From the NCBI GenBank assembly GCA_963747385.1, contig CAVVEY010000014.1, positions 6,590-70,589 of the forward strand: DNA of 64,000 nt. Direction: 5' to 3'. The DNA comes from an uncultured bacterium. GTDB lineage: Bacteria > Krumholzibacteriota > Krumholzibacteriia > Krumholzibacteriales > Krumholzibacteriaceae. The translations under genes and the position numbers were made by a program. Positions 2,485 to 29,327 of the stretch are shown one piece after another. How positions within the stretch are numbered: position 1 is the stretch's first letter; every line of letters begins with the position of its first letter. A model generated the notes under the pieces. It did not search any database. It was not told where the DNA came from and was given only the letters and a program-made list of their open reading frames with translations.

Positions 2485-5400
2485 TTGAGAAAGCCTGATC
2501 GAATTCGGCCTGTATGCCTTTTCGTGCCGGCCCTTCTCGTTCTCCTTGTTCTCGCGGGAGCGGCCGCGGCTCGCGAGGACGGAGCGCGCCTCGTTTCCTC
2601 CGCCGGCGGCTCCGTTACGTTCGAGGTGACGGTCCCCGGGGCGCGCATGGTTCCCGCGCCCGGAGGCGCGGTGAGGCTTGCAATAGACGGATACGGAACG
2701 TTTTCCCCGCCGGGCGCCGTCGAGCTCCCCGGCAGGACTTTTCGCGTCGCCATCCCGCAGTACGGCGAGCCCCGCGTCTCGGTGACGGTGATCGAGGAGG
2801 AGCGCCTCGGGCCTTTGAATCTCGTCCGCGTGCCGGGCGAACGGCTCGTCGAGGGTGAAAACGGCATACCGGTCACGGAACAGTACTATCCCCCCGATCC
2901 ATGGGCGAACGGCGGGGGCCTGCCGCTCTACGAGGCGCTCGGGGCGTCGTTCATGGGCCGCCAGAGGATTCTGCCGATCAGGATCAATCCGCTCGTCCTC
3001 GACGCCGGCGGCGCGCGGCTCGCCCGCAGGCTGTCGGTGACGGTGAGCTTCGGGACCGCGCTCGCGCCATCCGGGACCGACGCTCTCGTGCAAGCTCCCC
3101 TTGCGGGCGCGTGGAAGCGGCTCTATGACGAGCTCCTCGTCAACCCCGGCGACGCGGCGAAATTCCGGAAACCGCTCGACCGGACGCGCGCCTTCGCGGC
3201 GGCGGAGGCGGGGAAGAAGCTCAAGATCCGGATTCCCGAGACGGGCGTTTATTATATGCGCGCCGATTCTCTCATCGCCGCCGGGCTTTCGGCCGGGCTT
3301 GCGACGGGGGAGCTCGCGCTCAAGAAATACTACTACGACGAGACGAGACCCGATCTTCTGAGGACCGTCGACGTGCCGGTCTTCTTCGTCGAGGACGCGG
3401 GGACGGCGCCGGGCGTTTTCGACGGGAGCGATCTCGTCTATTTCTACGCGTTCGGGCTCAAGGACGACGCGGAGGCGCTCGATGCGAACGCTCTCTTCGC
3501 CGCCGACAACGTCCTCTGGCTCGAGGAAGAGGCCGCAGGATCGTCCATGCCCCTGATCCCCCCGGCTCCTCCGGGCGCGCTGGATACGCTCCGCCAGTTC
3601 GCCGCGACGATGAAATACCGCACGGACACCTGGTACATGAAGAACGCGGTTCCGGGGACGTTCGACTTCTATTACGCGAAGGGGCCGGTGGTAAGGGAAT
3701 CGGCGGTGCCGTTCGATCTGCCGTCTCCGGCGTCCACGGGGACCTTTTCGCTGACGTTTCGACTGCAGGGAAACGACCCGTTGAGCGTCACGCACACCGT
3801 TTCGTTCAGTGTCCGGAACTCCGCGGGGACGCGCACGCTCGGGACGGGCAGCTTCTATTCCAAGGAGGCGAGGAACTACACGTTCGCGGGGCTTTCCGCC
3901 TCCTGGCTCGTCGCCGGCCTGAACGAGCTCGTCATCACATGCGACGCGGACTACAAGTATCTCATCAACGATTTCACGATCGCGTACCCGGCGCTCTTCG
4001 TCGCGAGCGGCGACAGGCTCGAATTCGCGGTGAATCCGCTCTACGAGCCCGCCGCGATCGCCATTTCGGGCTTCTCCGCGAACAGCGGCTTTCTCGTCGA
4101 TATCACGAATCCCCGCAGCCCGTCGTATCGCGCGCTCGGCCCGTCGGATTTCGTCCCGGCCGGGGGCGGCTACCGGCTCGCGATCGACTTCGGCGAATCG
4201 TCGGCGACGCGCAGGTTCATCGCCTTCAGGGGCGCCGCCGCGACCCGTCTCGCGGTGCGCTCGGTCTCCGTCGACGCGCCGTCGCGTCTCCGCGAAACGG
4301 CCGGGGCGTACCAGTCGCTCGTCATCTCCCACGGGAATTTCATGACGCGCAGCGCCGAGTACGCCGCCTGGAGGAGGAGCCAGGGCTACCGCGTGCTCCT
4401 CGCGGACGTCGAAGACGTCTACGACGAATTCAACGGCGGGCTCCCGAACGCGAGCGCGATCAAACGCTATATCAAGTACGGGTTCGATCGTTGGGGCGTG
4501 GAGTACGTTCTCCTCGTGGGGGACGCGAGCGAGGATCACAAGCGGATCATCTACGGGCCGAATCCCGACCTGCAGGGATCCCCTCCCGATTATGTCCCCT
4601 CCTTCACCTACTCGACGAGCGTGAGCGGCACGTATGACGACGAGGTCATCTATTCCGATAGATACTATTCGTTTCTCGACGAGGCCGTTCCCGTCTTCTC
4701 GGGGATGGCCGGGGCATCCCTTCTTCCGGGCGGTTACCCTGACGTTTTCATCGGCAGGCTTCCCGTCGGAAGGGACGTGGAGCTTCGGGCCGTCATCAAC
4801 AAGATGAACCGCATGGAGACTCCGCAGCCCGACGACTGCATGGCGCCGCCGCGTCGTCCTCTTCTCCGACGACGCATGGTCCGGCCGCGGAAACGACTAC
4901 ATGTATCGATCGTACGAGTACGAGTTCGAGCGAAGCACCGACAGCTGCGCCGCGGCGGTGGAACGGGCGCTCCCCGGAGGATTCGACGTGCAGAGGCTCC
5001 ACCTTTCCCTGTATACCGATCCGATCCATCCCAACAGGACCGAGAGCGGCGCGGCGGTTCTGAGCAAAGCCACGACCGAGACGCGAAGGACCTTCACTCC
5101 GGCGCTGAACAAGGCGCTCAACCGGGGATGTCTCTGGTACATGTTCCAGGGGCACGGGAACCGGGCCGTTCTCACGACGGAGTCCGCCTACTCCCTCGGA
5201 TGGTATATGGATCCCGACAGCCTGCGGATCTACACGCCGTTCATATTCGTCGGCGTCGGCTGCCACATCAGCGATTTCGCCATCCAGGCGGAGTACAACA
5301 CGTTCGGCGAGACGGGGCCGTACGGCGATTGCATGAGCGAGCAGCTCCTCTTCAAGTCCGGAGCGGGCGCCGTCGCGACGTACGCGAGCGCCGGATTCGA

Positions 5401-6569
5401 GTATCTCTCCCAGAACGCCGTGCTCGTCGAGCGGCTGCACAGGGTCCTGTTTCAGGCGCTCCCCGCCGACTCGGTCGGGCCGCGCAACGAATACACCGGC
5501 GCCCACTGGGTATTCGGCGAGGCGATCGCGAAGGCGGAGATCGAGCAGATCGACAACACCTCGTACGGGACCGAGCAGGTGTTCCGGTATTGCGTCCTCG
5601 GCGATCCGATGCTCAAGATCGATCCGGGTCCCCCGCTCATGCGGCTCGAGGCCGATTCGGCGGGCGAATACCGCGTCGTGTCGAGCGGCGATACGATGAG
5701 GGCCCGCGACGGCGCGAACCTGATCAAGCTGCGCCTCACGGTGAGCGACATCGTGGCGATCGGGCGCGTTACATTGAGGGTGAACGGCGAGGACAGCACC
5801 GGCTCGCTGCGGATCGTTCCGCTCGTCGACGCCGACAAGACATTCGCCCGTTCGTACCGGGTCGACTACGACTATACGATCGACCCGAACGACGATATGC
5901 TGCTCTTCCAGGTGTTCTCGCCCGACGGCCGCGAGGTCGGCCGTTTCGAGATCCCGATCCTGACGAGCGTGCGGGCGTTCTACGGCGATTTCAGCTACGA
6001 GATCGGCGCCGGCGCCGAATCGCCTCCCTCCGGCACCTTCATCGTGACGGCCGATTTCCCCTCGTATCTCACGGAAGCGCCGGTGCTTTCCATCGACGGC
6101 GTCATCCAGGCGGGTATCGTCTTCACGGCGGGCGGTCCGGATCGGCCGCTGTACTGGAAGGCCGTGTTTCAAAGGACGCTCACGGGCGGGTTGCACGTAT
6201 TCACGTTGAACGCCGGGGATTTTTCCCGGAATATCTCGTTCAACGTCACGGGGAACGATCTCGTCGCGAGCGCCTTCAGCCTCCCCAATCCTTTCAGCAG
6301 GGAAACGAGCATCGTTTACAGCATCAACCTCGCCGTCGAATCGGTGACGATCGACATCTACAACGTGAGCGGCGTGCTGATCAGGAGCCTCAATCCGCCG
6401 CCCGGCAGGCTCGGACCCGCGAGCTTCGCCCGCCCTCACGCCGTCCTCTGGGACGGGCGCGACCTCGCCGGGGACCGCGTCGCGAACGGCACGTACATCT
6501 ACGTGATCCATATCAGCCGGCTCGGGGAAGACGATCGACATCAAGGGAAAGAGCGTCAAGCTCGAATAA
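2485..6569 (+). CDS. Peptidase C25 (gingipain-like) with FlgD-Ig / T9SS-type C-terminal domain; reading frame broken twice in this assembly
   Basis: TTG start after GAGGTG, then a signal peptide. C25 hallmarks are present: SLVISHGNF..., LLVGDASEDH, FIGRLPVG, then (after a shift near 4837) AWRRRVVLFSDDAWSG, FQGHGN and VGVGCHISDF (His/Cys dyad). The C-terminus reads LPNPFSRETSIVYSI...IYNVSGVLIRSL...WDGRDLAGDRVANGTYIYVIH. After a second shift near 6512 it reads SAGSGKTIDIKGKSVKLE*, with TAA at 6567-6569. Confidence 0.8.
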
Positions 6570-6682
6570 TATCGCTTTACCTTCGCGTGGAACCTTCCTT
6601 ACAATCGCCTCCCAGGGGACATCCGCGCCCGCCTGGGGCGCTCCCTGATTTCGAACCGGCCTCATCCCCGGGAGGTTCTGTT

Positions 6683-7396
6683 TTGAAGAAGCGTCTCGCG
6701 GCCCTCAAGAAGAAGGAAAAACGCCTCATTGTCGGGATCGAAACGGGGCCAACCCCCGGCAAGCTCGGGGCCGCTCTCGTCGAGGTTTCGGGGAGCGGAG
6801 ACGATACGGTTCTGTACCTGCGCGGCTTCACGAGCCGTTCCCTGGATCCGGAGCTTCTGGCGACGATCGGCGCCCTCGACCGGAACGAGAAATTCGATTC
6901 GGAGGAGCTTGCCGGCATCAATTTCCTCGTCCTCAGCCATCTCTCGAAGCTGTACGACGACGTGCTCGAGAACGCCGCCGTGAAACCGGAGGATGTGGAT
7001 TGCGTCGGGCTCAGCTGCCTGGAAGTCGGGGAGCTCGCGTTTCCGGGCGATCCGTCCGTATTCAGCGAGATGACGAATCACGTCGTGGCGAGCCGGTTCA
7101 GAATAGGCGTGGAGAACGGGGCGGGCTCATTCGTCGCCGTCGAAGAGGCCCTTCTTCAGGGCATCGTGGGCGAGATGATCGACCGGTTCGGCCTGGATGA
7201 AGAGGTCCGGGAGGCGGTCGCCGTCGCGCTCCTCGCGAACGAATCGATCTTCCACGAGGGCGTGAGCGTATGCGAAGGAAGCGCCGGCGCGAAGGGCAAG
7301 GGGCGCAAGACCCTGCGGGCGATAAAGCACACGGGCGCTTCGTCCGCCGCGGCCGGAAGGGCGTGTCTGTGCGGAGAGTTCTTCTTTCCGGGTTGA
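6683..7396 (+). CDS. Short divergent AnmK-like (anhydro-N-acetylmuramic acid kinase-like) or ASKHA-fold protein
   Basis: TTG start 7 nt after GGAGG. It sits in the tail of the chimeric ORF 4901-7396. RLIVGIETGPTPGKLGAALVEV resembles the AnmK N-terminus (GxMSGTSxDGxDxALV), and the C-terminal ...CLCGEFFFPG resembles the AnmK end. It is only about 237 aa. Confidence 0.45.
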   Translation: MKKRLAALKKKEKRLIVGIETGPTPGKLGAALVEVSGSGDDTVLYLRGFTSRSLDPELLATIGALDRNEKFDSEELAGINFLVLSHLSKLYDDVLENAAVKPEDVDCVGLSCLEVGELAFPGDPSVFSEMTNHVVASRFRIGVENGAGSFVAVEEALLQGIVGEMIDRFGLDEEVREAVAVALLANESIFHEGVSVCEGSAGAKGKGRKTLRAIKHTGASSAAAGRACLCGEFFFPG

Positions 7397-8777: not shown

Positions 8778-10338
8778 ATGGCCCGGGATTTTTTGCAGAG
8801 GCTCGCCCCGCATATGATCGTCGGGCTCGAGGGTCCCCGCCTCACCGACGACGAGAAGACGCTCCTCTCGAAATACGCCTTTCCCGGGATCATCCTTTTC
8901 GAGCGCAACGTCGCCGATTCGAGACAGCTCATGGAGCTCGTGCAGGGGATACGGAATATCTTCCGCAACTCGCACGGGACCGTGCCCCTTATCGCCGCGG
9001 ATCATGAGGGGGGCGTCGTATCCGTTCTCTCGCGGGCGATAGGAACTCCTCCCACGCAGATGGCCGCGGCGCGCGCGGGGGAGGCGCACCTCGTGGAGCG
9101 CCTGTTCGCCGAGAACGCGAGACGCATGCGCGCTTTCGGCGTCAACATGTTCCTCGGCCCGGTCGCCGACGTCAATTCCGATCCTTTGAATCCCGTCATC
9201 GGGACGAGGAGCTTCGGCGAGGCGACAGGGTTCGTTTCGTCGCTCGTTTCCGTCGCCGTCTCCGCGTCGAGGAGGGAGGGGGCGCTCACCTGCCTCAAGC
9301 ATTTCCCCGGCCATGGGCCTTCTCGCGTCGATTCTCACCTGGAGCTGCCGGTTCTCGGAGCGACTCTCGATCAGCTCAGGGAGAGAGACGTCCCCCCCTT
9401 TGCGAGCGGAATCGCCGCCGGGGCGGAGTCGGTGATGATCGGGCACATAGCGCCCCTCGGCCGCGCTCTTCCCGCGTCGCTCGATCCGGAGATCATCGGA
9501 GGATTGCTGCGCGGGGAGCTCGGCTTCGAGGGGGTCGTCATGACCGACGCTCTCGAGATGGAGGGGGTGAAGGGGGAAGGGACTCTTCTCGACATATGCG
9601 AGCGCGCCCTTGCGGCGGGCAACGATATTCTCCTTTTCTCGAAACCGGTCGCGAGCGTGGCGGGCGAGCTCGCTTCCCCCGGTGAAGCCGCCGAAGCGGA
9701 TGAGTTCCGCGGCGACGGCTTCGCGAGCGCGGAGGCGCTTTCGATCGCCCGAATCGAGAGACTCCTCGGCCTCGCCGGCGAAAGGGAGCGGGAATTCGAG
9801 CTCCCGGGCGATCCGGGCGTCTATCGCGAGATCGCCGAGAAATCGATTCTGGTCGCGTCAGGGCTCGATGGAGGCGCCGGCGGTCCGTTCCCCGGCGGGC
9901 AGGGGAAGGGTTTCAAAGCGATCTTCTGCTGCGAAAAAGGGGAGATCGATCGCTTTCCGACAAGGAATTTCGTCTTTCGCATCCTGCAGGGGTTGAAGGG
10001 CGGCGAAGGCGCGAAGAGCGAGGCTCAGGGGGCGATCTCGATCGGGCGCTACAGTCTGGAACGATACGAGGCGTTCCAGGCGCCGGCGCCTCATCTCGAG
10101 GCCTGGCTTTTTTCGTCGGAGAAATCAGACGCCGGCCCGGGACGCCGTGTTCCTGCTCAACAGGAGACCGCTTTCGGAGGACGCCGTGGCGAGGATGTGC
10201 TCGGGGGCGGGAATCGTCGTCGTCGCCGGATGGCCCTATGCCGCTCGTTTTGTCGGGAGCGGCCGGACGGTGATCACGACATTCGGTGTCTACGACGCCG
10301 CGGCGGACGCGGTATGCCGTTTGATAGGAGCGTATTGA
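8778..10338 (+). CDS. nagZ: Beta-N-acetylhexosaminidase NagZ (GH3), frame broken once near 10140
   Basis: AADHEGGVVSVL, GVNMFLGPVADV, KHFPGHG and VVMTDALEM match GH3. After ...SSEKSDAGP, the protein-like continuation DAVFLLNRRPLSEDAV...VCRLIGAY* is in frame +1 (ORF 10147-10338). The original frame becomes Arg-rich nonsense. Confidence 0.85.
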
Positions 10339-21300: not shown

Positions 21301-21509
21301 TCGCCGCGCCGAATTTCTGCTTCTCCCCGGCGATGAACGCGGGCGAGCGGCGCCGGGAACGGCCCGAGCATGAGCCATGTGTCGACGTGCGCCGCTTTCA
21401 CCTCGACGGCGGTGGCGGCCGTCGGCTTTTCTGCCGCGGCGCCCGCGATCGAGGCGACAATCAGAACACAGAGGGCGGCGAGTAGCGATAGCACAGGAAG
21501 ACGTTTCAT
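18304..21509 (-). CDS. S9 family serine peptidase (beta-propeller plus alpha/beta hydrolase) fused through a Pro/Ala linker to a C-terminal thioredoxin-like module; frame broken twice
   Basis: N-terminus MKRLPVLSLLAALCVLIVASIAGA (frame of ORF 18513-21545). A shift near 21341 leads into ORF 18167-21265. Catalytic motifs are GASYGGF (Ser), HGGADTNV (Asp) and DEQDHF (His). A PA-rich linker follows. After ...YYDYKPDEAIL, a shift near 18646 leads into ORF 18304-18603: EISAGRLDGIEIVLVLGTWCSDSHQQVPRLWKVL... Confidence 0.8.
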
Positions 21510-21751
21510 GGAGGTTCCCTCTTTCGTTAAGGATTCGGCTTGCATCGAAACGTTCCCTGCGGCCGGGAGCGTTCGAGCCGATGATACTCGCTGCGCCGGC
21601 GGTTTTCAAGGGAGAGCTCTCGTTCGGGCCTCCTTCGATCGGCTCGATCGCGCGAGACGACATCGAGCTCGCGCGAAAGGAAGTTGCAATAGAAGCCCCC
21701 CTTTCTTATCATATACCGAACACGGGACGGATGGTCTTGTTCCAGGAGGGT

Positions 21752-22330
21752 ATGAAGCGGATGAAAGGTATGCGCACTCTTTTCGCCGCCACGCTGTGTC
21801 TCATTATCGCGGTGGGCTGCGACGGAAGAAACGGTTCCGGAGAAGGTTCGAAGACGTCGGCGGACGCTTCGTCGTCGGAAAAGGCCGGGGCGTGGCTTCC
21901 CTTCAACGAGGGGATGGCGCTCGCCGCGAAGGAGAACAAGCACGTCGTCATCGATTTCTACACGACGTGGTGCCACTGGTGCAAGGTCATGGACCGCGAA
22001 ACCTTCTCGGATCCCGAGGTCAGGAAGTACCTCGCCGAGAACTTCGTCACGATCCGGATCAACGCCGAAAGCACGACAGAGAAAGTGAGCTTCAAGGGGG
22101 AGGAGCTGACTCCCGTGGCGCTCGCCCGCGCGTTCGGCGTGAAGGGTTTTCCCTCTATCGCCTATCTCGACCGGGAAGGGCAGCTCGTGACGATCGTTCC
22201 GGGCTTCATGCCCGCGAAGACCTTTCTGCCGCTCCTCCAGTATATGCAGAAGGAATGCTACAAGCAGCAGATGACGTTCGATGAGTTCATGAAGAAAAAG
22301 GGCGAGTGCGAAACGACCGGAAAGAAATAG
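21752..22330 (+). CDS. Thioredoxin-fold lipoprotein (WCxxC)
   Basis: ATG after GGAGGG, lipobox IIAVGC, and HVVIDFYTTWCHWCKVMD followed by GFPSIAYL. Confidence 0.8.
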   Translation: MKRMKGMRTLFAATLCLIIAVGCDGRNGSGEGSKTSADASSSEKAGAWLPFNEGMALAAKENKHVVIDFYTTWCHWCKVMDRETFSDPEVRKYLAENFVTIRINAESTTEKVSFKGEELTPVALARAFGVKGFPSIAYLDREGQLVTIVPGFMPAKTFLPLLQYMQKECYKQQMTFDEFMKKKGECETTGKK

Positions 22331-22361: not shown

Positions 22362-23450
22362 ATGAGGATCGGAGTGCTGACCGGCGGCGGAGACGCGCCG
22401 GGACTCAATCCCGCGATAGCGGGGATAGTCGAGCGGGCGACCATGGACGGGTTCGAGGTGGTCGGGCTCAAGCGGGGATGGCAGGCGCTCGCGATACGCG
22501 AGAACGACAGTCACGTCGTGAAGCTCGGCCCCGAGATCATCCGCGAGTACAGCCGCCTCGGCGGGAGCAAGATCCAGTGCAGCAGGACGAATCCGGTGAG
22601 CCCGCAGAACGACCGCACCGACATCGTCAAGGAGAACATGAAGAAGTTCAAGCTCGACGCGATCATCGCGATCGGCGGCGAGGATACGCTCGGCGCGGCC
22701 GAGGTGCTCTCCGAGCGGGGAGTGCCGGTGGTCGGCATACCGAAGACGATCGATCGGGACCTCACGGGCACCGAATACACGCTCGGCTACGATACCGCCC
22801 TCAACGTCATCTGCGAGAGCGCGGAGCGGGTGGCGCACACGGCGGAATCGCACGAAACGATATTCTTTCTGGAGGTCATGGGACGGCACGCCGGGTGGCT
22901 CGCTCTCCGGGGCGGGGAATCGGCGTTCGCGGACGTCATCCTGATTCCGGAGTATACCTTCTCCATCCAGAAGCTCATATCGGTGCTCAAGGAGAGGCAG
23001 AAAGAGACCGACGATCTGAATCTCGGCTTCGAGCACCGCTACAAGATCATCGTCGTCGCCGAGGGCGCCCACATCGAGGGCGAAGAAGCGGTGCGGCGCG
23101 ACAGCAAGCTCGACGAGTTCGGGCATTACAGCCTCGGCGGGGTGGGGGATTACCTCAAGAGCCTCCTCGAGCATGAGTTCAAGCACACGCGCTACACGGC
23201 GCTCGCGTACCTCCAGAGGGGCGCGCCGCCGTCGCAGCGGGACCGGCAGATCGGGCGGAGATTCGGCCACAGCGCCGTGGAGATCGTCAAGGACGGGAAA
23301 TTCGGACACATGGTGGCCGTACAGAAGTCGAAGCTCGTCGTCGTCCCGCTCAGGGAAGTGCGCAAATCCCCGCGCCTCGTCGACGTCGACAAGCTCTACG
23401 ACAAGGACCGGCTCAACGTGAAGATCGAGAATCCTCTGCTCGATACTTGA
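22362..23450 (+). CDS. pfp: 6-phosphofructokinase, probably pyrophosphate-dependent
   Basis: MRIGVLTGGGDAPGLN, IAIGGEDTLGAA, GIPKTIDRD and MGRHAGWLAL. Asp in GGEDT and Lys in PKTID occupy the positions of E. coli PfkA Gly104 and Gly124. Confidence 0.85.
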   Translation: MRIGVLTGGGDAPGLNPAIAGIVERATMDGFEVVGLKRGWQALAIRENDSHVVKLGPEIIREYSRLGGSKIQCSRTNPVSPQNDRTDIVKENMKKFKLDAIIAIGGEDTLGAAEVLSERGVPVVGIPKTIDRDLTGTEYTLGYDTALNVICESAERVAHTAESHETIFFLEVMGRHAGWLALRGGESAFADVILIPEYTFSIQKLISVLKERQKETDDLNLGFEHRYKIIVVAEGAHIEGEEAVRRDSKLDEFGHYSLGGVGDYLKSLLEHEFKHTRYTALAYLQRGAPPSQRDRQIGRRFGHSAVEIVKDGKFGHMVAVQKSKLVVVPLREVRKSPRLVDVDKLYDKDRLNVKIENPLLDT

Positions 23451-23525: not shown

Positions 23526-24668
23526 TCAGCCTCTCCTGAAGACCGCGACGGTCTCCGCATGGTACGTCGCGGGGAAGAGGTCGACGAGATTGATCTCGGA
23601 GAGGATATAGCCCGCCTCGATGAGCGCCTTCGCGTCCCGCGCGAAGGTCGGCGGATCGCACGAGACGAAGATGAGCTCCTGAGGCTTGATCCTGATTATT
23701 CCCTGAAGCACCGCTTTCGGAAGCCCCAGACGCGGCGGATCGACCATGATGAGGTCGTATCCGCCGAGCCTCCCGATCTCCTTCTCCGCGTTGCCGCGCC
23801 GGAACTTCGCGTTCGCGACCCCGTTGAGCCTCGCGGCCGCCGTGGCGTTCCGCGCCGCGGCCTGATTCTGCTCGATGCCGAACGCCTCGATCGCCATTTT
23901 CGCGAGGGGAAGGGTGAAGAATCCCGCGCCGCAGTAGAGGTCGAGGAGCTTCCGGCGCACGGCGCCGGGGAGCGAGACGACGAGCTCGACAAGAGATGTC
24001 GCGAGGAAGCGGTTGACCTGGAAGAAGGAGTCGTGGCTCACGGGGAACATGAGGCCGCCCGCCTCCATGAGGACCTCGGGAGGTCCCGGGCGGTCGAGAA
24101 GTCCCCAGAAATGCACCGCGCCGAACTTGTCCATCCGAACGCGGACCTCGGTGAGCGGTTCGAACGACTCGCTCGGGATCTCGGCGATCGCCTTTCTCAT
24201 TTCCTCGGGGAGCAGCAGGCATCCCTGCGGCGGGAAGGGAACGAGGGTATCCGATTCCCGCATGAGGAATCCCGGCCGTCTCTCGGCGTCGACCTTGAAA
24301 ATGGCGTGGTTCCGGTATCCGTAGCGTTCGGGGCAGGGAATGACGCGCTTGAACTCGGTCTTGGTCTTCCCGATGCGTTCGAGGTCCTCGAGGACGCTCT
24401 CGCGCTTGACCTTCATCTCGTCCTCGTAGCCGAGGTGCTGCAGGTGGCAGCCGCCGCACGAGCCGAAGACGGGGCATTCGGCCTCGCGCCGCAAGGGAGA
24501 GGGCTCGACGATGCGATCGATGCGGCCGAATATGATATTCTTCTTCTCGCGCACGGCGGTGAACTCGACCGTGTCTCCGGGCGCCGCGTACGGTATGAAC
24601 GCGGTCTTGCCCTCGACGAAGGCGAGGCCGTAGCCTCCGTGAACGATCTTCTTGATTTCAGCTATCAT
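23526..24668 (-). CDS. 23S rRNA (uracil-5-)-methyltransferase RlmD/RumA family (TRAM plus Fe-S Cys cluster plus SAM methyltransferase)
   Basis: Start at MIAEIKK. Contains CPVFGSCGGCHLQHL, LDLYCGAGFFTLPLA, DPPRLG and FVSCDP. Confidence 0.85.
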   Translation of the reverse strand: MIAEIKKIVHGGYGLAFVEGKTAFIPYAAPGDTVEFTAVREKKNIIFGRIDRIVEPSPLRREAECPVFGSCGGCHLQHLGYEDEMKVKRESVLEDLERIGKTKTEFKRVIPCPERYGYRNHAIFKVDAERRPGFLMRESDTLVPFPPQGCLLLPEEMRKAIAEIPSESFEPLTEVRVRMDKFGAVHFWGLLDRPGPPEVLMEAGGLMFPVSHDSFFQVNRFLATSLVELVVSLPGAVRRKLLDLYCGAGFFTLPLAKMAIEAFGIEQNQAAARNATAAARLNGVANAKFRRGNAEKEIGRLGGYDLIMVDPPRLGLPKAVLQGIIRIKPQELIFVSCDPPTFARDAKALIEAGYILSEINLVDLFPATYHAETVAVFRRG

Positions 24669-24800
24669 GCCAAGAGATATAACAGTCCGCCCGCCCCGGC
24701 GAAACACATTTCTCGGAGAATCAGCCCGCTTGCCGGCAACTTACCCTTTACCGGCGGGCCGCCGGAGACTATACTCGCCCGAAATAACGGGGAGTTCCGC

Positions 24801-25454
24801 ATGAGAATCGGCATGATGATGAAATGGAAGATCCCGCCGCCGAACGCGCGCGTGGCGAGCGAGGCGCGCACCCTGATGACGGCCGGGCATAAGGTCTTTT
24901 TCCTCATCGAGGGGAGACCGGGCGAGGCGCGCGAGGAGTCGATGAACGGCCTGAACGTGGTGAGGGGCGTCAGAATGAGCGCGCCGAGGGAGATATGGCA
25001 CCGCTACACGTTCAATTTCACCTACCGGGATCCGCTCTGGGCGAAGGCGATCGAACGTTTCGTGCGCGAGCACAGCATCGACGTTCTGCACGTGAACGAT
25101 CTTCCGCTCTTCAGGGAGGCAGTCGCCGCCGGAAGGCGGCTGGGGCTTCCCGTCGTCGCGGACCTCCACGAGAACTATCCGGCGGGGCTCCAGGTCCGGC
25201 ACGCGAATCGCCTGGAGAAGGCGACGATCTACGCGCATGGCCGCTGGGCGAGGTACGAGCGCGCGGCGCTCCGCGACGTCGACGCGATCGTCGTCGCGAC
25301 CGTGGAGTCCCGCGACAGGCTCGTTGACCTCGGTGTCGGCGGGGAGAAGATCTCCGTCGTGCCGGACACGGCGGCCGTTCGTCCGGGGGAAGCCCCGGTC
25401 GATCCCGAGCTCGTCGAGCTCTACCGCAGACTCGCAACGATGAGAAAGGCATGA
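24801..25454 (+). CDS. Glycosyltransferase family 4, N-terminal (Glyco_trans_4-like) domain only
   Basis: ATG 24801 after GGGGAG. It sits in the tail of ORF 23559-25454. HVNDLPL, VVADLHENYP and ISVVPD resemble a GT4 N-domain. The 217-aa product stops before any E-x7-E C-domain. Confidence 0.6.
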   Translation: MRIGMMMKWKIPPPNARVASEARTLMTAGHKVFFLIEGRPGEAREESMNGLNVVRGVRMSAPREIWHRYTFNFTYRDPLWAKAIERFVREHSIDVLHVNDLPLFREAVAAGRRLGLPVVADLHENYPAGLQVRHANRLEKATIYAHGRWARYERAALRDVDAIVVATVESRDRLVDLGVGGEKISVVPDTAAVRPGEAPVDPELVELYRRLATMRKA

Positions 25455-25463
25455 GGAGCGAAT

Positions 25464-26597
25464 ATGTCTTCCAAAGCGCACCCGATGACGGTCAAGCTGC
25501 TCGATCTCGTTCCCCAGTACGAGGGCATCAGGGATGAGATCCGGGCGGCGATCGACGAGGTTCTCTCGACGCAGCAGTTCATTCTCGGGAAGAAGGTCGA
25601 GGAGCTCGAGGCGGAGATCGCCCGTTACTGCGGGGTGAGGCACGCCGTCGGCGTCGCGTCGGGAACGGACGCGATCCTGCTCGTCCTCATGGCGCTCGGC
25701 GTGAAGGAGGGGGACGAGGTCGTCACGACGCCGTACACCTTCTTCTCGACGGTGAGCTCCGTCACGCGCCTCGGCGCGAAGCCCGTGCTCGCCGATATCG
25801 ATCCCCGAACATATAATATCGATCCGGATCGCGTCTCGAAGCTCGTCACGCGCAAAACGAAGGCGATCCTCGTCGTGCATCTCTTCGGCCAGATCGCCGG
25901 GATGGACGCGATCTCGGAAGCGGCCGCGCGCTCGGGAGTTCCCGTCGTCGAGGACGCGTGCCAGTCGATCGGCGCGCGGTACAAGGGCAAGCGCGCGGGC
26001 TCGCTCGGCGCGGCGGGCTGCCTCTCCTTCTTCCCCTCGAAGAATCTCGGCGGCTTCGGCGACGGCGGGATGATCGTGACGGACGACGCGTCGCTCGCGG
26101 ACGCGGCGCGGATGCTCAGGGTCCACGGGGGGCGCGAAAGGTACTATCACGACGTCGTCGGGATCAACAGCCGCCTCGACGCCCTGCAGGCCGCCGTGCT
26201 CCTCGTGAAGATGAAGCACCTCGACGGGTGGCACGAGGGGCGGAGAAAGAACGCCGCGTATTACGACCGCGAGCTCTCGAAGGTGGCGGGAGTGACGATC
26301 CCGTACGTCGAGCCCCACAACGAGAGCGTGTACAACCAGTACGTCATCCGGGTGAAGGAGCGCGACGCGCTGCGGGATCATCTCCGGAAGCGGGGCGTCG
26401 GCTGCGACGTGTACTATCCCGTTCCGCTTCATCTGCAGAAGTGCTTCGCGTTCCTCGGCGGGAAGGCGGGGGATTTCCCCGAATCCGAGCGTGCTGCGCG
26501 CGAGACGCTCGCCCTCCCCGTGTACCCCGAGCTCGGGACCGCCGAGAAGGAATACGTCGTCTCGTGCATCCGCGAATTCCTGGAGCGCCGCGCATGA
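25464..26597 (+). CDS. DegT/DnrJ/EryC1/StrS family PLP-dependent sugar aminotransferase
   Basis: FILGKKVEELE, GVASGTDAI, DACQSIGA and SFFPSKNLGGFGDGG (PLP Lys). Confidence 0.9.
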   Translation: MSSKAHPMTVKLLDLVPQYEGIRDEIRAAIDEVLSTQQFILGKKVEELEAEIARYCGVRHAVGVASGTDAILLVLMALGVKEGDEVVTTPYTFFSTVSSVTRLGAKPVLADIDPRTYNIDPDRVSKLVTRKTKAILVVHLFGQIAGMDAISEAAARSGVPVVEDACQSIGARYKGKRAGSLGAAGCLSFFPSKNLGGFGDGGMIVTDDASLADAARMLRVHGGRERYYHDVVGINSRLDALQAAVLLVKMKHLDGWHEGRRKNAAYYDRELSKVAGVTIPYVEPHNESVYNQYVIRVKERDALRDHLRKRGVGCDVYYPVPLHLQKCFAFLGGKAGDFPESERAARETLALPVYPELGTAEKEYVVSCIREFLERRA

Positions 26598-26641
26598 AGA
26601 TTGTCAGCGCATGAAGGTCGTCCGCGCATGAAGGTCGTCTG
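26591..26641 (+). repeat. 17-nt tandem triplication spanning the degT stop and the next gene's start
   Basis: The units are CGCATGAAGATTGTCAG, CGCATGAAGGTCGTCCG and CGCATGAAGGTCGTCTG. Each carries an ATG (26594, 26611, 26628). The first two open 6-codon ORFs whose TGA overlaps the next ATG. Confidence 0.85.
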
Positions 26642-27764
26642 CTTCTCCGAGATCCAGTGGCGCTACGTGAGAACGCGCAAGCAGCAGGTGCTCTCGCGCT
26701 TTCCGGCCGATTGCGAGATACTCTTTCTCTCGAGCGTCGTGAGGGGGAAGCCGAACAATTTCCGGCCCATGCGCGACGGCCGCGTCGTTCACGTATGCGT
26801 TCCGATATTCAAGAACGTGCCCCAGCGCCGGCTTCAGGCCCTGCTGGCGCTGCCTCCCGTGCGCTTCGTCTGGAACGCCGTCATTCTCCTGTGGCTCTCC
26901 GCGATCTTCCTCGCGACCGGCTTCTCGGGACGCAACCGCGTCTTCTACGTGTCCAATATCTACTACGCGGCGATCCTTCCGTTTCTCTCGCGTTCGCTCC
27001 TCTTCTACGACTGCAACGACGATCATCTCGCGTTCCCCGACACGCCGCCGTGGGCGCGGAAGTATTTCCTCGCCCTCGCGCGGTCGGCCGATCTCGCGAT
27101 CGCGGTCAGCACGAGGCTCGCCGAGCTTCTCGGCGAGGCGGGAGTCCGGGAGGTGCGTCTCGTGGGGAACGGCGTCGACTATGATCTCTTCCGCGCGGCC
27201 GCCGAATCGGGCGTTCCCGACGACATGAAAGCGCTCGAGCGTCCCATCATCGGCTATTCGGGAGCGGTGGCCCAGTGGTTCGATTTCGAGCTGCTCGATT
27301 TCATTGCCGAATCGTTCCCGCGCGCCTCGATCGTCATGGTGGGGCCCGTGTTCGGCCCGCAGGCCGCGGAGCTCGCCGCGACGGCGGCGCGCCGGGGCAA
27401 CGTGTTTCATCTCGGGGCGAAACCCTACGAGAAGCTCGGGAGCTACATAGCGGCGATGGACGTTTGCATAATTCCGCTCAAGATGAACGATCTCATGCGA
27501 TCCGCCGACCCGAACAAGCTCTACGAATACGCCGCGTGCGGACGGCCGATCGTCACCATGAAGCATTCCGAGGATCTCGAGCCGCTCCGGGGAATGATCC
27601 ATCTCGCCGGGTCGCACGCCGAGTTCATCGAAGGAATCCGGCTCGCGCTCGCTTCGGGCGCGAATCAGGAGAAGCTCCTCGAGTTCGCGCGGAAACGGAG
27701 CTGGCAGGCGCGCGCGGACGAGATCGTCTCTCTCGTTCGGGAATCGATCGCTCGGAAATCCTAA
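26628..27764 (+). CDS. Glycosyltransferase (GT-B, GT4/TuaH-like)
   Basis: MKVVCFSEIQWRYVRTRKQQ..., IGYSGAVAQWFDFELL, VMVGP and NKLYEYAACGRPIV. Confidence 0.8.
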   Translation: MKVVCFSEIQWRYVRTRKQQVLSRFPADCEILFLSSVVRGKPNNFRPMRDGRVVHVCVPIFKNVPQRRLQALLALPPVRFVWNAVILLWLSAIFLATGFSGRNRVFYVSNIYYAAILPFLSRSLLFYDCNDDHLAFPDTPPWARKYFLALARSADLAIAVSTRLAELLGEAGVREVRLVGNGVDYDLFRAAAESGVPDDMKALERPIIGYSGAVAQWFDFELLDFIAESFPRASIVMVGPVFGPQAAELAATAARRGNVFHLGAKPYEKLGSYIAAMDVCIIPLKMNDLMRSADPNKLYEYAACGRPIVTMKHSEDLEPLRGMIHLAGSHAEFIEGIRLALASGANQEKLLEFARKRSWQARADEIVSLVRESIARKS

Positions 27765-27774
27765 AGGAGGATCC

Positions 27775-28992
27775 ATGGCTCGATCGCTCACGCATCTCGC
27801 GCTCGCGCTCGCCGTCCTTACGCTTCTCGCGGGAGGCTGCGCGAGGCGCGAGGGAACTTCCGCGCTCTTCATCCTCGAGGAGCTCGAAACGGCGTCCGCC
27901 GTCAAGGACGCCCCGACGCGGGTCGAACGTCTCTCGATCTTCATCGGCAATCACCCGGATCACCCCTACCGGTTCGTCGCGTACAACCGGATGTTCGAGA
28001 CGCTCGGGACCGAGATGAAGGACGAAACGGGAATGGAGGCGCGCCTTGCCGGGGCGCTGAAGAAGGAAGCGGATTTCGTTTCGCGAGGCGAGCTGCTTCT
28101 CGGCAAATTCATCCGTCTCATGGAAAAGGACAACTCCGCGGCGGCGGCGTTCGCCGACTCCCTTTTCCTGACCGAACGCTCGCCGCGGCTCTTTCTCATT
28201 ATGGGCTACTATCTCATGGATCCGAAGGCCGATCAGGATCTCGCCGTGAAGTGCTTCCTCCGGTCGGCCGATCTTTCGACCGGCGCGTACGAGAAGGGAC
28301 AGGCGCTCGCCATGGCGGGCTCCGCGCTCGAGGAGCGGGGGAAGAGGGACGAGGCGAAACGGTATCTCGCTATGGCCGCCGGCAATCCCGAGGCCGATAT
28401 GCTCATGGGGAGGATACTCTGGGAGGAAGGCAAGCGCGCGGAGGCCCTCGACGCGTACGTCTCGTGCGCCGCTCATATGCCGGGCGCGAGAGCCACGACG
28501 AAGCTCGACAGCCTGTACGCGCTCGCTGGTCCCGGCGCGAAGGATCTCGGCGAGGCCATCATGGCGCGGCGGATCGGCGACGCGGGCCCGATGCCGGAAG
28601 GCATATTCGTCGATCTCGACGGGAAAGCCCATGATCTATCGAAGCTGAAGGGCACGAAGATCGTGCTCTACGCCCTGAGCCCCACTTGAATGCCCTGCGT
28701 TGCGGAGTTTCCGCAACTCGAGCGGCTCTACGGGCGGGAAAAGGAGCTCGGCTTCAGATTTCTCGGCCTCGAGGTCAAGGGCATGCTCGCCAGGATGCGC
28801 GACGTCGTGAAGGATAAGAAGACGACCTTCCCGATCCTGCTCGACGACCGCCGTCTCGCGCGCGAAGTCCTTCAAATTCCGGGGACGCCGACGACCTTCG
28901 TGGTCGACGCTCGGGGGAGAATACGCGCGCGGCTCATCGGCGCGGCGGAAGATATCGACGAAACTATCGCGGAAGTGCTGAAGAGGATCTGA
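27775..28992 (+). CDS. Exported (probable lipoprotein) helical/TPR-like protein with C-terminal TlpA/redoxin domain; in-frame TGA 28687-28689 predicted to encode selenocysteine (UxxC)
   Basis: ORFs 27775-28689 and 28690-28992 are in the same frame and separated only by TGA. The joined sequence reads ...DLDGKAHDLSKLKGTKIVLYALSPT-U-MPCVAEFPQLERLY..., which matches the redoxin WCxPC context. A SECIS-like hairpin lies 9 nt downstream. Confidence 0.7.
28699..28718 (+). promoter_or_regulatory. Candidate bacterial SECIS hairpin
   Basis: GTTGCGGA-GTTT-TCCGCAAC is a perfect 8-bp stem. The apical loop starts with GU and begins 18 nt after the UGA. Confidence 0.55.
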
Positions 28993-28994
28993 GG

Positions 28995-29100
28995 GAAAAA
29001 ATTCGGGGTTCCCGTCTTGAAGCTGTGGCCAAGGTGCTGTGCTGCATGTCCTGACGGGAACCCCTTCTTGTCTCTCCCGGTCTCTTTTTTTTGTGAGACC
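28995..29100 (-). ncRNA. Candidate small RNA or structured 3' element in an AT-rich intergenic island (speculative)
   Basis: On the minus strand, TTGACT (29134-29129), a 16-nt spacer and TATATT (29112-29107) are followed by hairpin GGTCTC-A8-rich loop-GAGACC. Next comes a 12-bp stem GGGGTTCCCGTC/GACGGGAACCCC (29005-29064) followed by GAATTTTTT. Confidence 0.25.
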
Positions 29101-29327
29101 TGCTTTAATATAACACGAAATCATTTCTAGTCAATAATTATTCTTCTATTTCTCAATGAATTTTTCTATCTCGCAAGTGTTTGTCGTATAATGCGTTATA
29201 TGTAGACCGGGGCGGCGTTTTTGCGATAATAGGGTATACTACCTATATGTGGAAAAGTGTCGAATCGTTCCGGATTCAGGCCGCGCCCGCAAGTCGGTGC
29301 GCCGCCGCGGGAGCGACGTTCCAGACG

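Follow-up and report, generated by a model that had tools for sequence, protein, structure and literature searches.

Two open reading frames that follow one another directly raise the question of whether the TGA triplet between them ends one protein or lies inside another. The first (27775-28689, 304 aa) and the second (28690-28992, 100 aa) belong to one frame, of which TGA 28687-28689 is the sole break. The initial annotation had presented the pair in this way, separated by the TGA only, and indeed no other stop stands between them. They are located in a window of 64 kb, i.e., the whole stretch of DNA that was analyzed. The joined product is 405 residues long and reads ...KIVLYALSPT-U-MPCVAEFPQLERLYG... 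around the break, or, in a shorter form, ...ALSPT-U-MPCVAEFPQLER. The features of the locus are collected in the table below. The stretch 27775-28992 is almost certainly a single gene coding for a 405-residue exported lipoprotein, which annotation pipelines render as two ORFs. Its product is very probably a UxxC selenoprotein, a lipoprotein composed of a TPR-like and a TlpA-like domain and probably working as a periplasmic thiol-disulfide reductase. With it, the locus adds a solid new member to a known selenoprotein class.

Table. Features of the selenoprotein locus, in window coordinates
Feature	Position	Strand	Basis or remark
Upstream glycosyltransferase gene	TAA stop 27762-27764		Overlapped by the Shine-Dalgarno-like motif
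Shine-Dalgarno-like AAGGAGG	27764-27770	+	4 nt 5' of the ATG; read from the sequence
Selenoprotein CDS, complete (predicted)	27775-28992	+	405 codons including Sec305, plus terminal TGA 28990-28992
Lipoprotein signal peptide (predicted), MARSLTHLALALAVLTLLAGG-C	27775-27840	+	Invariant Cys22; hydrophobic stretch and small residues before the Cys
Cys22 (TGC), predicted lipidated residue	27838-27840	+	31/31 aligned homologs
TPR-like all-alpha repeat domain (predicted), residues 30-266	27862-28572	+	AlphaFold2 and Foldseek
TlpA/ResA-type thioredoxin-fold domain, residues 267-405	28573-28989	+	Pfam and PDB sequence matches; split by the TGA
Sec codon UGA (predicted), residue 305, opening the redox motif U-M-P-C	28687-28689	+	Conservation; alignment to CxxC
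Cys308 (TGC), putative resolving Cys of UxxC	28696-28698	+	Invariant in 45/45 loci
SECIS-like hairpin GUUGCGGA-GUU-UCCGCAAC	28699-28717	+	8-bp stem, loop GUU; folding and conservation

Conservation of the in-frame TGA among related loci

The base composition does not change in character at the break: to either side of it, GC by codon position has the same coding signature (0.63/0.51/0.79 and 0.67/0.40/0.80). The comparison covers 45 related loci spanning the site, from Candidatus Krumholzibacteriota MAGs and metagenomes, with identities down to ~39%. TGA occupies the Sec position in 45/45 of these loci, which stem from independent assemblies of many samples, and it is followed by xxC in 45/45; the residue pairs seen between U and C are MP, MT, MH, GI, RP, and PP. 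Neither TAA or TAG (0/45) nor TGC or TGT (0/45) is found at this position. The in-frame continuation past the TGA counts exactly 100 codons in all complete loci, while the terminal stop of the gene varies among them (30 TGA, 6 TAG). On the upstream side, ...PT is the last stretch of every one of the N-terminal protein clusters, which number more than 70 and share 38-87% identity. The dN/dS ratios, 0.12-0.27 downstream and 0.15-0.30 upstream, indicate that purifying selection acts on both sides of the TGA. The initial annotation had asked whether close homologs genuinely end at this codon: none fits a real stop, the site being TGA only, with xxC and 100 codons throughout.

In the 45 loci and over 140 protein clusters, no Cys-form ortholog above ~40% identity occurs; all relatives above that level carry the TGA. 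A 157-aa protein (P0148), considered as a possible read-through or Cys variant, is instead a frameshifted assembly product. Every public record found splits the gene. The 304-aa part is named ‘hypothetical’ or ‘TPR repeat protein’, and the 100-aa part goes under the names ‘TlpA disulfide reductase family protein’, ‘peroxiredoxin’, or ‘CcmG’.

The SECIS-like hairpin downstream of the UGA

A 19-nt hairpin, GTTGCGGA-GTT-TCCGCAAC in DNA letters, starts 9 nt after the UGA, its loop G at 28707 being 17 nt away from it. The 8-bp stem, its start 9 nt after the UGA, and the GU at the beginning of the loop had all been reported in the initial annotation and stand; the other values are corrected here, as the hairpin ends at 28717 instead of 28718, its loop comprises 3 nt instead of 4, and this loop begins 17 nt, not 18, after the UGA. 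The minimum free energy (MFE) of the hairpin is -10.8 kcal/mol vs. -2.2 ± 1.9 kcal/mol for shuffled sequences (z = -4.6), of which 2/200 fold as stably. The codons that build it, GTT-GCG-GAG-TTT-CCG-CAA, have a joint probability of ~5e-4 under the codon usage of the window, and three of them are rare (GTT 12%, TTT 17%, CAA 12%). The third positions of codons +4, +5, +6, and +8 have an entropy of 0 bits and that of codon +7, which encodes Phe, has 0.35 bits; the corresponding values for invariant residues outside the hairpin are 1.0-1.6 bits.

A set of 40 distinct homologous sequences retains the TGA together with the hairpin, and 97% of the cells are paired. Changes within the stem amount to one compensatory UA-to-CG, in locus L011, and 18 UA-to-UG; four of the eight pairs never vary and a double change affects one pair only. 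As stem covariation is thin, the RNA evidence rests mainly on synonymous-site conservation. Judged from this conservation, the hairpin is under nucleotide-level constraint and frozen at its synonymous sites. The lower stem of the MFE fold is not conserved in the alignment fold.

The published bSECIS model asks for a loop of 3-9 nt with a G in its first two positions, a stem of 4-16 bp, a distance of 16-37 nt from the UGA, and an MFE of at most -7.5 kcal/mol; the hairpin fits every one of these constraints with its GUU loop, 8 bp, 17 nt, and -10.8 kcal/mol (PMC13188914). The match to bacterial SECIS elements proposed at the outset is thus upheld, the published constraints being respected and the synonymous sites frozen. 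The search with Rfam SECIS models, also suggested there, returned no match, neither in the window at the gathering threshold nor in 28600-28800 at E ≤ 10. Since bacterial SECIS elements share little sequence, the Rfam models presumably do not cover this element.

The closest point of comparison is the SECIS of E. coli fdhF. Both hairpins are part of the coding region and follow the UGA directly on its 3' side, and in both the loop starts with a G followed by G or U, at a spacing of 18 nt in fdhF and 17 nt here. The 5' arm of the stem reads GUUGCA in fdhF vs. GUUGCGG at this locus, and the loop GGUC vs. GUU (or A-GUU-U). Unlike in fdhF, no bulged U is evident in the hairpin.

Domain organization and relatives of the joined protein

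The predicted signal peptide terminates with ...LTLLAGG-C, a pattern that we take to be a lipobox, the Cys being kept in all 31 homologs. The AlphaFold2 model covers the N-terminal 304 aa. It exhibits a helix (residues 2-19), then a disordered linker (residues 18-26), and, from residue 30 to 266, an all-alpha domain of 14 helices with a mean pLDDT of 88.4. The top Foldseek matches of this domain in the PDB are all TPR proteins (SPY, LapB, a consensus TPR, OGT, and PilF; E 1e-4 to 1e-3), with TM-scores of only 0.3-0.48, and the Pfam TPR_2 match is weak and below threshold (16.9 vs. a cut-off of 27). ‘TPR-like’ is the safe description of this modeled domain. The architecture put forward by the initial annotation, an export signal, a helical or TPR-like part, and a redoxin domain, agrees with the lipobox, the all-alpha model, and the TPR proteins as best PDB matches.

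For the Pfam domain search, U was replaced by C in the joined protein. AhpC-TSA (PF00578) is matched at 8.4e-14, with 52.0 bits vs. a cut-off of 26, and Redoxin (PF08534) at 1.9e-13, with 50.9 bits vs. 26.6. Both matches span residues 272-393 and therefore cross the TGA. The best PDB sequence matches are ResA, TlpA, and StoA (E down to 1.5e-12), and their alignments run across the Sec site: the TGA is aligned to the first Cys of C-x-P-C in solved ResA/TlpA structures, and GTPTTF, the conserved cis-Pro loop, corresponds to (G/P)xPTsF in PDB entries 3or5, 4nmu, and 1st9. The strands that AlphaFold2 predicts at residues 267-298 precede the TGA. Pfam and AlphaFold2 together show one thioredoxin fold, interrupted by the TGA. 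The TGA had been assigned from the start to the first Cys of a redoxin CxxC, a placement confirmed by the two Pfam matches above cut-off and by a Cys in the TGA column, both in the solved structures and in the full-length Cys-form protein P0238.

P0238 (410 aa, WCPPC) aligns with residues 219 to 405 with 33% identity over 207 columns (E 3e-23), the TGA facing the first Cys of WCPPC, and its N-terminal domain matches the N-terminal family profile with an hhalign probability of 97.3% over 236 columns. Together with P0198 (427 aa) and P0192 (478 aa), it represents metagenome Cys-form proteins with the same order of signal peptide, helical repeat, and C-terminal TlpA domain. These differ from the locus protein in having WCGPC or WCPPC with a Cys and uninterrupted ORFs, and share ~25-33% identity with it. 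To note, one member of the Cys-form TPR-plus-TlpA clusters is annotated as ‘thiol-disulfide isomerase/thioredoxin’.

The bacterial UxxC selenoproteins with a thioredoxin fold have a Sec in first position of UxxC, as predicted for the locus protein, and share with it a fold of the AhpC-TSA/Redoxin type and a UGA with a downstream hairpin. Tabulated families are the ‘Prx-like thiol:disulfide oxidoreductase’ (PF00578), the ‘Thiol:disulfide interchange protein’ (PF13098), and the ‘Redoxin family protein’ (PF08534) (PMC13188914, PMC1794560). The locus protein differs from the tabulated UxxC selenoproteins by its predicted lipoprotein signal, its TPR-like domain of ~240 residues, and its Krumholzibacteriota host. 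Its comparison with the family of reference sequences WP_010940744.1, WP_011366075.1, and HEU0032618.1 covered the UxxC motif and the Pfam family, which is shared.

ResA (Bacillus subtilis), TlpA (Bradyrhizobium), and CcmG/DsbE, which of all solved structures match best in sequence (E 1e-12 to 1e-6), are extracytoplasmic, membrane-anchored thiol-disulfide reductases. The locus protein resembles them by its CxPC-type motif, its cis-Pro loop (GTPTTF vs. G/PLPTsF), and its predicted position outside the cytoplasm. In contrast to these proteins, the nucleophilic Cys would be replaced by Sec, the x1 residue is Met instead of the Trp-Cys-x-Pro-Cys context, and the transmembrane helix would give way to a lipid anchor, with the TPR-like domain in addition. 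The corresponding NCBIfam models all score below their cut-offs, by a wide margin for ResA, TlpA, and DsbE: ResA NF002854 (61.6 vs. 170), TlpA NF047696 (28.4 vs. 230), DsbE/CcmG TIGR00385 (22.2 vs. 123) and NF011941 (17.6 vs. 359), and StoA NF041202 (33.8 vs. 210). The ResA-like WAxxUGC selenoproteins of NF041054 are also TlpA/ResA-like and give a weak profile match (E 2.5e-8); membership in that family is ruled out by a score of 33.6 bits vs. a cut-off of 300 and by the motif, SPT-U-MPC and not WAxxUGC.

Proposed decoding of the UGA and likely function

Were the TGA a genuine stop, the locus would yield two proteins, a TPR lipoprotein of 304 aa and, by termination-reinitiation at UGA-AUG, a TlpA-like fragment of 100 aa. 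The two ORFs of every public annotation and the ATG that directly follows the TGA in 29/36 distinct loci would suit this arrangement, yet the 7 other distinct loci carry CCG, CCT, CGG, or GGG at this place, and their first possible in-frame start comes 6-28 codons further on, beyond the conserved Cys. The stop would also have to remain TGA throughout the 45 loci, without a single TAA or TAG, despite a variable terminal stop and an entropy of 1.0-1.4 bits at the third positions neighboring the TGA. At the protein level, the beta-1 strand and the N-terminal hairpin of the fold would reside on a separate chain and the nucleophilic residue would be deleted, whereas the Cys-form homolog is a single chain. 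Inspection of the sequence before the ATG at 28690 reveals no Shine-Dalgarno motif comparable to that of the gene start. Reinitiation is therefore extremely unlikely. As to a pseudogene, or a sequencing or assembly error at the TGA of this contig, other genes of the window do look disrupted, such as a C25 peptidase split at ~4900; however, the identical TGA recurs in 45 loci, assembled independently of one another and drawn from many samples, and both halves of the gene are under purifying selection. Because the TGA is conserved across loci, such an explanation is effectively refuted and its probability close to nil.

Read-through might also take place without Sec, by near-cognate insertion of Trp or Cys or by a lineage-specific reassignment, leading to a Cys/Trp-xx-Cys motif with the hairpin as a stimulator only. 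In other systems, a hairpin downstream of a stop codon can promote its read-through, and the Sec machinery is missing from the DNA surveyed: selA, selB, selD, and tRNA-Sec are found neither in the 64-kb window nor in ~386 kb of related loci. More precisely, E. coli SelB, SelD, and the C-terminal part of SelA gave no tBLASTn match at 1e-3 against the window and all loci, ARAGORN detected no tRNA-Sec in the window and 25 loci, and an Rfam gathering scan of 8 long related loci found no Sec machinery RNA. Against this explanation, UGA serves as an ordinary stop in this genome, since TGA ends 23 of the 34 likely genes of the window (TAG 7, TAA 4); being the commonest stop, and also the one that ends this same gene, it argues that the code is not reassigned. 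Furthermore, the site is that of the nucleophilic Cys of a thioredoxin fold, a classic Sec site; the hairpin obeys the SelB-type bSECIS rules (loop G-U, spacing) and resembles that of fdhF; and, if a Cys were intended, one would expect some locus to have reached TGC or TGT by a single base change, which 0/45 have. Read-through without Sec is hence very improbable.

For the preferred reading, a selenoprotein, the following mechanism can be proposed. During translation, the mRNA hairpin, 9 nt past the UGA, would present its GU-containing apical loop; we infer that this loop would be bound by SelB, the elongation factor specific for selenocysteine, with its Sec-tRNA(Sec), and that UGA 28687-28689 would then be decoded as selenocysteine and not as a stop. 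The terminal UGA 28990-28992, without such a hairpin, would end the protein. The product would be an exported lipoprotein, anchored by Cys22, with the putative redox pair Sec305-x-x-Cys308 in a TlpA/ResA-type fold that follows the TPR-like domain of ~240 residues. A client or partner protein would be held by the latter domain; attack of the selenolate on a disulfide of the client would then give a mixed selenosulfide, to be resolved by Cys308. As far as the sequence tells, a thiol-disulfide reductase acting on the periplasmic side is most likely.

A literature search found no report of Sec use in Krumholzibacteriota or Eisenbacteria, or of a TPR-TlpA selenoprotein. A broader picture may be sketched, to be taken as tentative and rather doubtful as a whole: a family devoid of close Cys-form orthologs would provide the first evidence that Krumholzibacteriota decode UGA as Sec, its members would be envelope reductases combining TPR client binding with a Sec-TlpA domain, and a small RNA flanking the gene would perhaps be linked to it, as a shared terminator or a regulator.

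Joining the two ORFs corrects the annotation of the whole family and restores a catalytic site otherwise invisible. A selenoprotein here would imply that the uncultured phylum Krumholzibacteriota, which inhabits anoxic sediments and soils, depends on selenium. The family also offers a very clean natural SECIS candidate, short, invariant over deep divergence, and fdhF-like, which should be useful to train selenoprotein finders. A Sec-TlpA protein that is predicted to be exported and lipid-anchored, has a TPR-like domain, and lacks a close Cys form would make a good case for studying why Sec is kept over Cys in an extracytoplasmic reductase. The known picture of Sec decoding, and of the folds using Sec, is unchanged.

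Elsewhere in the window, TGA codons flanked by ORFs with a coding signature correspond only to adjacent same-frame genes, and the other sites combining a TGA with a perfect bSECIS-like hairpin (12858, 32698, and 39928) have no convincing reading frame. A similar hairpin at 10255 of locus L006 is without an upstream TGA and lies antisense to a TldD-type gene. The C25 peptidase mentioned above is split between two frames. The small RNA that flanks the selenoprotein gene, with a transcript predicted on the minus strand from ~29100 to 28995, is conserved, unclassified, ~105 nt long, and located on the opposite strand.

Reading frame and the internal UGA

The gene that closes a same-strand run in this window very probably encodes a selenoprotein, and UxxC thioredoxin-fold selenoproteins of such type are already established. 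As the initial annotation proposed, its two ORFs share one frame and are separated solely by an internal TGA (...AGC CCC ACT TGA ATG CCC TGC GTT GCG GAG TTT CCG CAA CTC...), with no second stop between them, and the joined protein is 405 residues long. Homologous loci were collected from species-representative genomes (16 loci, from Candidatus Krumholzibacteriia/-ota MAGs, ‘UBP1’ bins and unclassified MAGs) and from metagenomes (31 loci). The internal TGA is kept in all 45 loci covering the site and is directly followed in each by an xxC triplet (MPC, MTC, MHC, GIC, RPC or PPC), while the in-frame continuation is exactly 100 codons in every complete locus.

Features of the probable selenoprotein gene and its surroundings (window positions)
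Feature	Position	Strand	Remark
Peptidase_C25 part 1	2485-4899	+	profile positions 2-151
Peptidase_C25 part 2	4901-7396	+	different frame, profile positions 176-373
Second exported thioredoxin-fold protein	21377-22330	+	true start probably near 21752
Phosphofructokinase	22362-23450	+	same-strand run
Minus-strand ORF	23526-24707	-	tRNA (uracil-5)-methyltransferase match
Plus-strand ORF	23559-25454	+	GT4 glycosyltransferase match, C-terminal third only (residues 429-602)
GT4-type glycosyltransferase	end 25454	+	same-strand run
DegT-type aminotransferase	25464-26597	+	same-strand run
GT1-type glycosyltransferase	26601-27764	+	same-strand run, last before selenoprotein gene
Upstream ORF	27775-28689	+	304 aa
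Internal TGA	28687-28689	+	direct sequence reading
Downstream ORF	28690-28992	+	100 aa, frame shared with upstream ORF
Hairpin GTTGCGGA-GTT-TCCGCAAC	28699-28717	+	19 nt, 3-nt loop
Candidate small RNA	28995-29134	-	~105 nt

Protein databases present the gene as two separate products. A search with the joined sequence returns 70 relatives (38-87% identity), nearly all of 303-309 amino acids and, for every aligned one, with the C-terminus ...PT; a search with the redoxin domain returns more than 70 clusters of exactly 100-residue fragments that begin with MPC... and carry the labels TlpA family, peroxiredoxin or CcmG. The family is universally mis-annotated as two ORFs. Were the internal TGA a mere stop, it would have had ample time to drift to TAA or TAG, since the terminal stop, taken as a control, does vary (30 TGA and 6 TAG among 36 distinct loci) and the codon preceding the internal TGA has a third-position entropy of 1.36 bits. 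UGA, moreover, serves as the ordinary stop of 23 of the window's 34 likely genes, more than either other stop codon, which indicates the standard genetic code. As for a downstream protein with its own initiation, seven distinct loci carry CCG, CCT, CGG or GGG directly after the TGA, and their earliest possible in-frame start lies 6-28 codons downstream, beyond the conserved Cys; this rules out such an arrangement as ancestral or general. With the window sequence as reference, Nei-Gojobori dN/dS lies at 0.12-0.27 over the 100 codons that follow the TGA and at 0.15-0.30 over the 40 that precede it.

To note, ATG directly follows the Sec codon in 29 of the 36 distinct loci (UGA-AUG, U-M-P-C; window 28687-28692), so that gene callers can begin a 100-residue ‘TlpA family’ ORF there. 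Met is an unusual x1 residue in a CxxC-type motif; its place is taken by Pro, Arg or Gly in deeper-branching members. A metagenomic database protein, P0148 (157 aa, ENA), joins pieces of both gene halves (...FVDLDGKASRSLEAQGHEDRALRPEPHLNALRCGVSATREPLTGREKELGFRFF...) via frameshifts that resemble those of an error-laden assembly, and was rejected as a biological variant. An ARAGORN tRNA-Thr (CGU) call in one homologous locus (L031, 2936-3013, minus strand), antisense within the N-terminal coding part, is absent from the other loci and is probably a false positive.

The hairpin following the UGA

The hairpin begins 9 nt past the UGA, and an alternative drawing with a 7-bp stem and an AGUUU loop is equally valid. 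Its existence had been predicted, but its coordinates and loop had been miscounted: the element ends one nucleotide earlier, at 28717, and the loop G (28707) lies 17 nt past the UGA. Alone, it folds at -10.8 kcal/mol versus -2.2 +/- 1.9 in dinucleotide shuffles (z = -4.6). The bSECIS consensus that a 2026 review (PMC13188914) quotes calls for 4-16 bp in the upper stem, an apical loop of 3-9 nt with a G at one of its first two positions in the pattern N1-G-[G/U]-N-N2, a UGA-loop distance of 16-37 nt and an MFE of -7.5 kcal/mol or lower. The hairpin agrees with every one of these, its loop reading A-G-U-U-U with A and U paired. It resembles E. coli fdhF, as anticipated, in spacing (18 nt from the UGA to the GGUC loop in fdhF as measured here, 17 nt to GUU in the window) and in its 5' stem arm (GUUGCA versus GUUGCGG). 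The suggested Rfam check yielded no model matching the hairpin.

Aligned without gaps, 40 distinct sequences show hardly any variation in the core UUGCGGAGUUUCCGCA. At third positions the entropy is 0 bits in GTT (+4), GCG (+5), GAG (+6) and CCG (+8), counted in codons from the TGA, and 0.35 bits in TTT (+7), versus 1.0-1.6 bits at amino acids of the same invariance outside the hairpin (Val-8, Pro-2, Thr-1, Gly+31, Leu+50). Several of these codons are scarce in the window (GTT 12% of Val, TTT 17% of Phe, CAA 12% of Gln), and the joint probability of the six hairpin codons given the peptide is ~5e-4. Across the 40 sequences 97% of cells are paired, four of the eight pairs never vary, and RNAalifold recovers a 7-bp stem with a GUU loop. 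A single compensatory change, UA to CG, is observed in one locus (L011), the adjacent pair showing 18 cases of UA to UG. Classical covariation is thin, yet RNA-level constraint on the synonymous sites of the hairpin is clear.

Protein architecture and Cys-containing relatives

A Pfam search of the joined protein, with Cys replacing the stop, revealed AhpC-TSA (8.4e-14) and Redoxin (1.9e-13) at residues 272-393, both above curated cut-offs and spanning the TGA uninterrupted. Among solved structures, ResA, a Chlorobium thioredoxin-family thiol:disulfide interchange protein, StoA and TlpA match best, with E values between 1.5e-12 and 1e-6; in these alignments the TGA coincides with the leading Cys of C-x-P-C, where it had been proposed to lie, and the cis-Pro loop GTPTTF is conserved. 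The hydrophobic N-terminal signal sequence ending LAGG/C and the invariant Cys22 (31 of 31 homologs) are consistent with a lipoprotein. Modeled with AlphaFold2 from a 31-sequence alignment, residues 1-304 reach a mean pLDDT of 88 and are all-alpha at 30-266; the four beta strands of falling confidence at 267-298 look as expected for the opening portion of a thioredoxin fold whose remainder is absent from the model. In a Foldseek search of the PDB this model has only TPR proteins as its top matches, at modest TM-scores, in keeping with the helical, TPR-like part initially described.

No specific NCBIfam model reaches its curated cut-off for the joined protein; the ResA-like WAxxUGC selenoprotein model gives 33.6 bits versus the 300 needed. 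When the 100-residue C-terminal part was run exhaustively with HMMER against 1.84 billion representatives, one cluster only was retrieved at E <= 1e-30, the family itself, followed by a handful of shorter fragments from diverged members and then by Cys-containing TlpA-like proteins of at most ~40% identity; no Cys-form ortholog above that level was seen in the scan. Several of the latter are 400-480 residues long and match through their C-terminal part. One of them, P0238 (410 aa), aligns with residues 219-405 of the joined protein (33% identity, E 3e-23) and has Cys at the TGA column, as predicted (VLDFWGTWCPPCRAELP opposite VLYALSPT-U-MPCVAEFP). Its N-terminal 260 residues match the N-terminal profile of the family (hhalign probability 97.3%, 236 columns), so the TPR-like plus TlpA architecture occurs in an unbroken Cys protein as well, of which the Krumholzibacteriota family would be the Sec counterpart. 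The family is distinguished by its fusion of lipoprotein and TPR-like features, by the absence of close Cys orthologs, by its universal mis-annotation and by its occurrence in Krumholzibacteriota, a phylum in which a literature search found no report of Sec use.

These analyses demonstrate the decoding signals and the architecture; that SelB binds, that the protein contains selenium and is lipidated, the direction in which electrons flow and the client are inferred. The hairpin would recruit SelB and Sec-tRNA(Sec) to the ribosome, UGA305 being decoded as Sec, while at the terminal UGA, devoid of such a hairpin, translation would end. Once mature, the protein would sit on the periplasmic side, held by a lipid anchor; its TPR-like domain may bind a partner or an unfolded client, and Sec305 and Cys308 would perform thiol-disulfide (selenosulfide) exchange as TlpA, ResA and CcmG do.

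Genomic neighbourhood

The gene starts 10 nt past the end of the GT1-type glycosyltransferase gene, preceded by AAGGAGG. Downstream, a convergent gene encodes a large protein that combines Asp-protease, PDZ and MBL/beta-CASP domains, and a TldD/PmbA pair comes next; this gene order is kept throughout the genome loci, to ~40% identity. The remaining window, in which secreted peptidases and genes for envelope polysaccharides prevail, holds neither Sec machinery nor a CcdA/DsbD-type electron donor, and no neighbourhood gene points to a client of the reductase. selA, selB, selC and selD are absent from the window and from ~386 kb of related loci, which is uninformative for genomes of several Mb.

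The second thioredoxin-fold protein, encoded ~6 kb upstream, matches Thioredoxin_2, Thioredoxin_7 and DsbH-like profiles and carries a WCHWC motif with a lipobox-like ...LIIAVGC ahead; its synteny with the selenoprotein gene is kept across loci. At 23526-25454, two long ORFs overlap on opposite strands and both are conserved; as the GT4 match is confined to the end of the plus-strand ORF, the real gene probably starts near 24800. The gingipain-like Peptidase_C25 gene has an apparent frameshift near 4900, probably one of the indel-type disruptions mentioned in the initial annotation, that could be genuine or an assembly error.

Directly 3' of the selenoprotein gene, the candidate small RNA possesses a near-consensus promoter (TTGACT-16-TATATT with TG upstream, 29134 to 29107), a 5' hairpin GGUCUC/GAGACC, a second stem of 11 bp (GGGGUUCCCGUC/GACGGGAACCCC) around an invariant AGGAC..GCAGCACAGCACCUUGGCC, and a 3' U-tail. 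No Rfam family matches it. RNA and promoter are kept in at least 13 Krumholzibacteria loci, with compensatory changes at five base pairs; the stem may also act as a bidirectional terminator, and the element accounts for the AT-rich patch at ~29090-29200.
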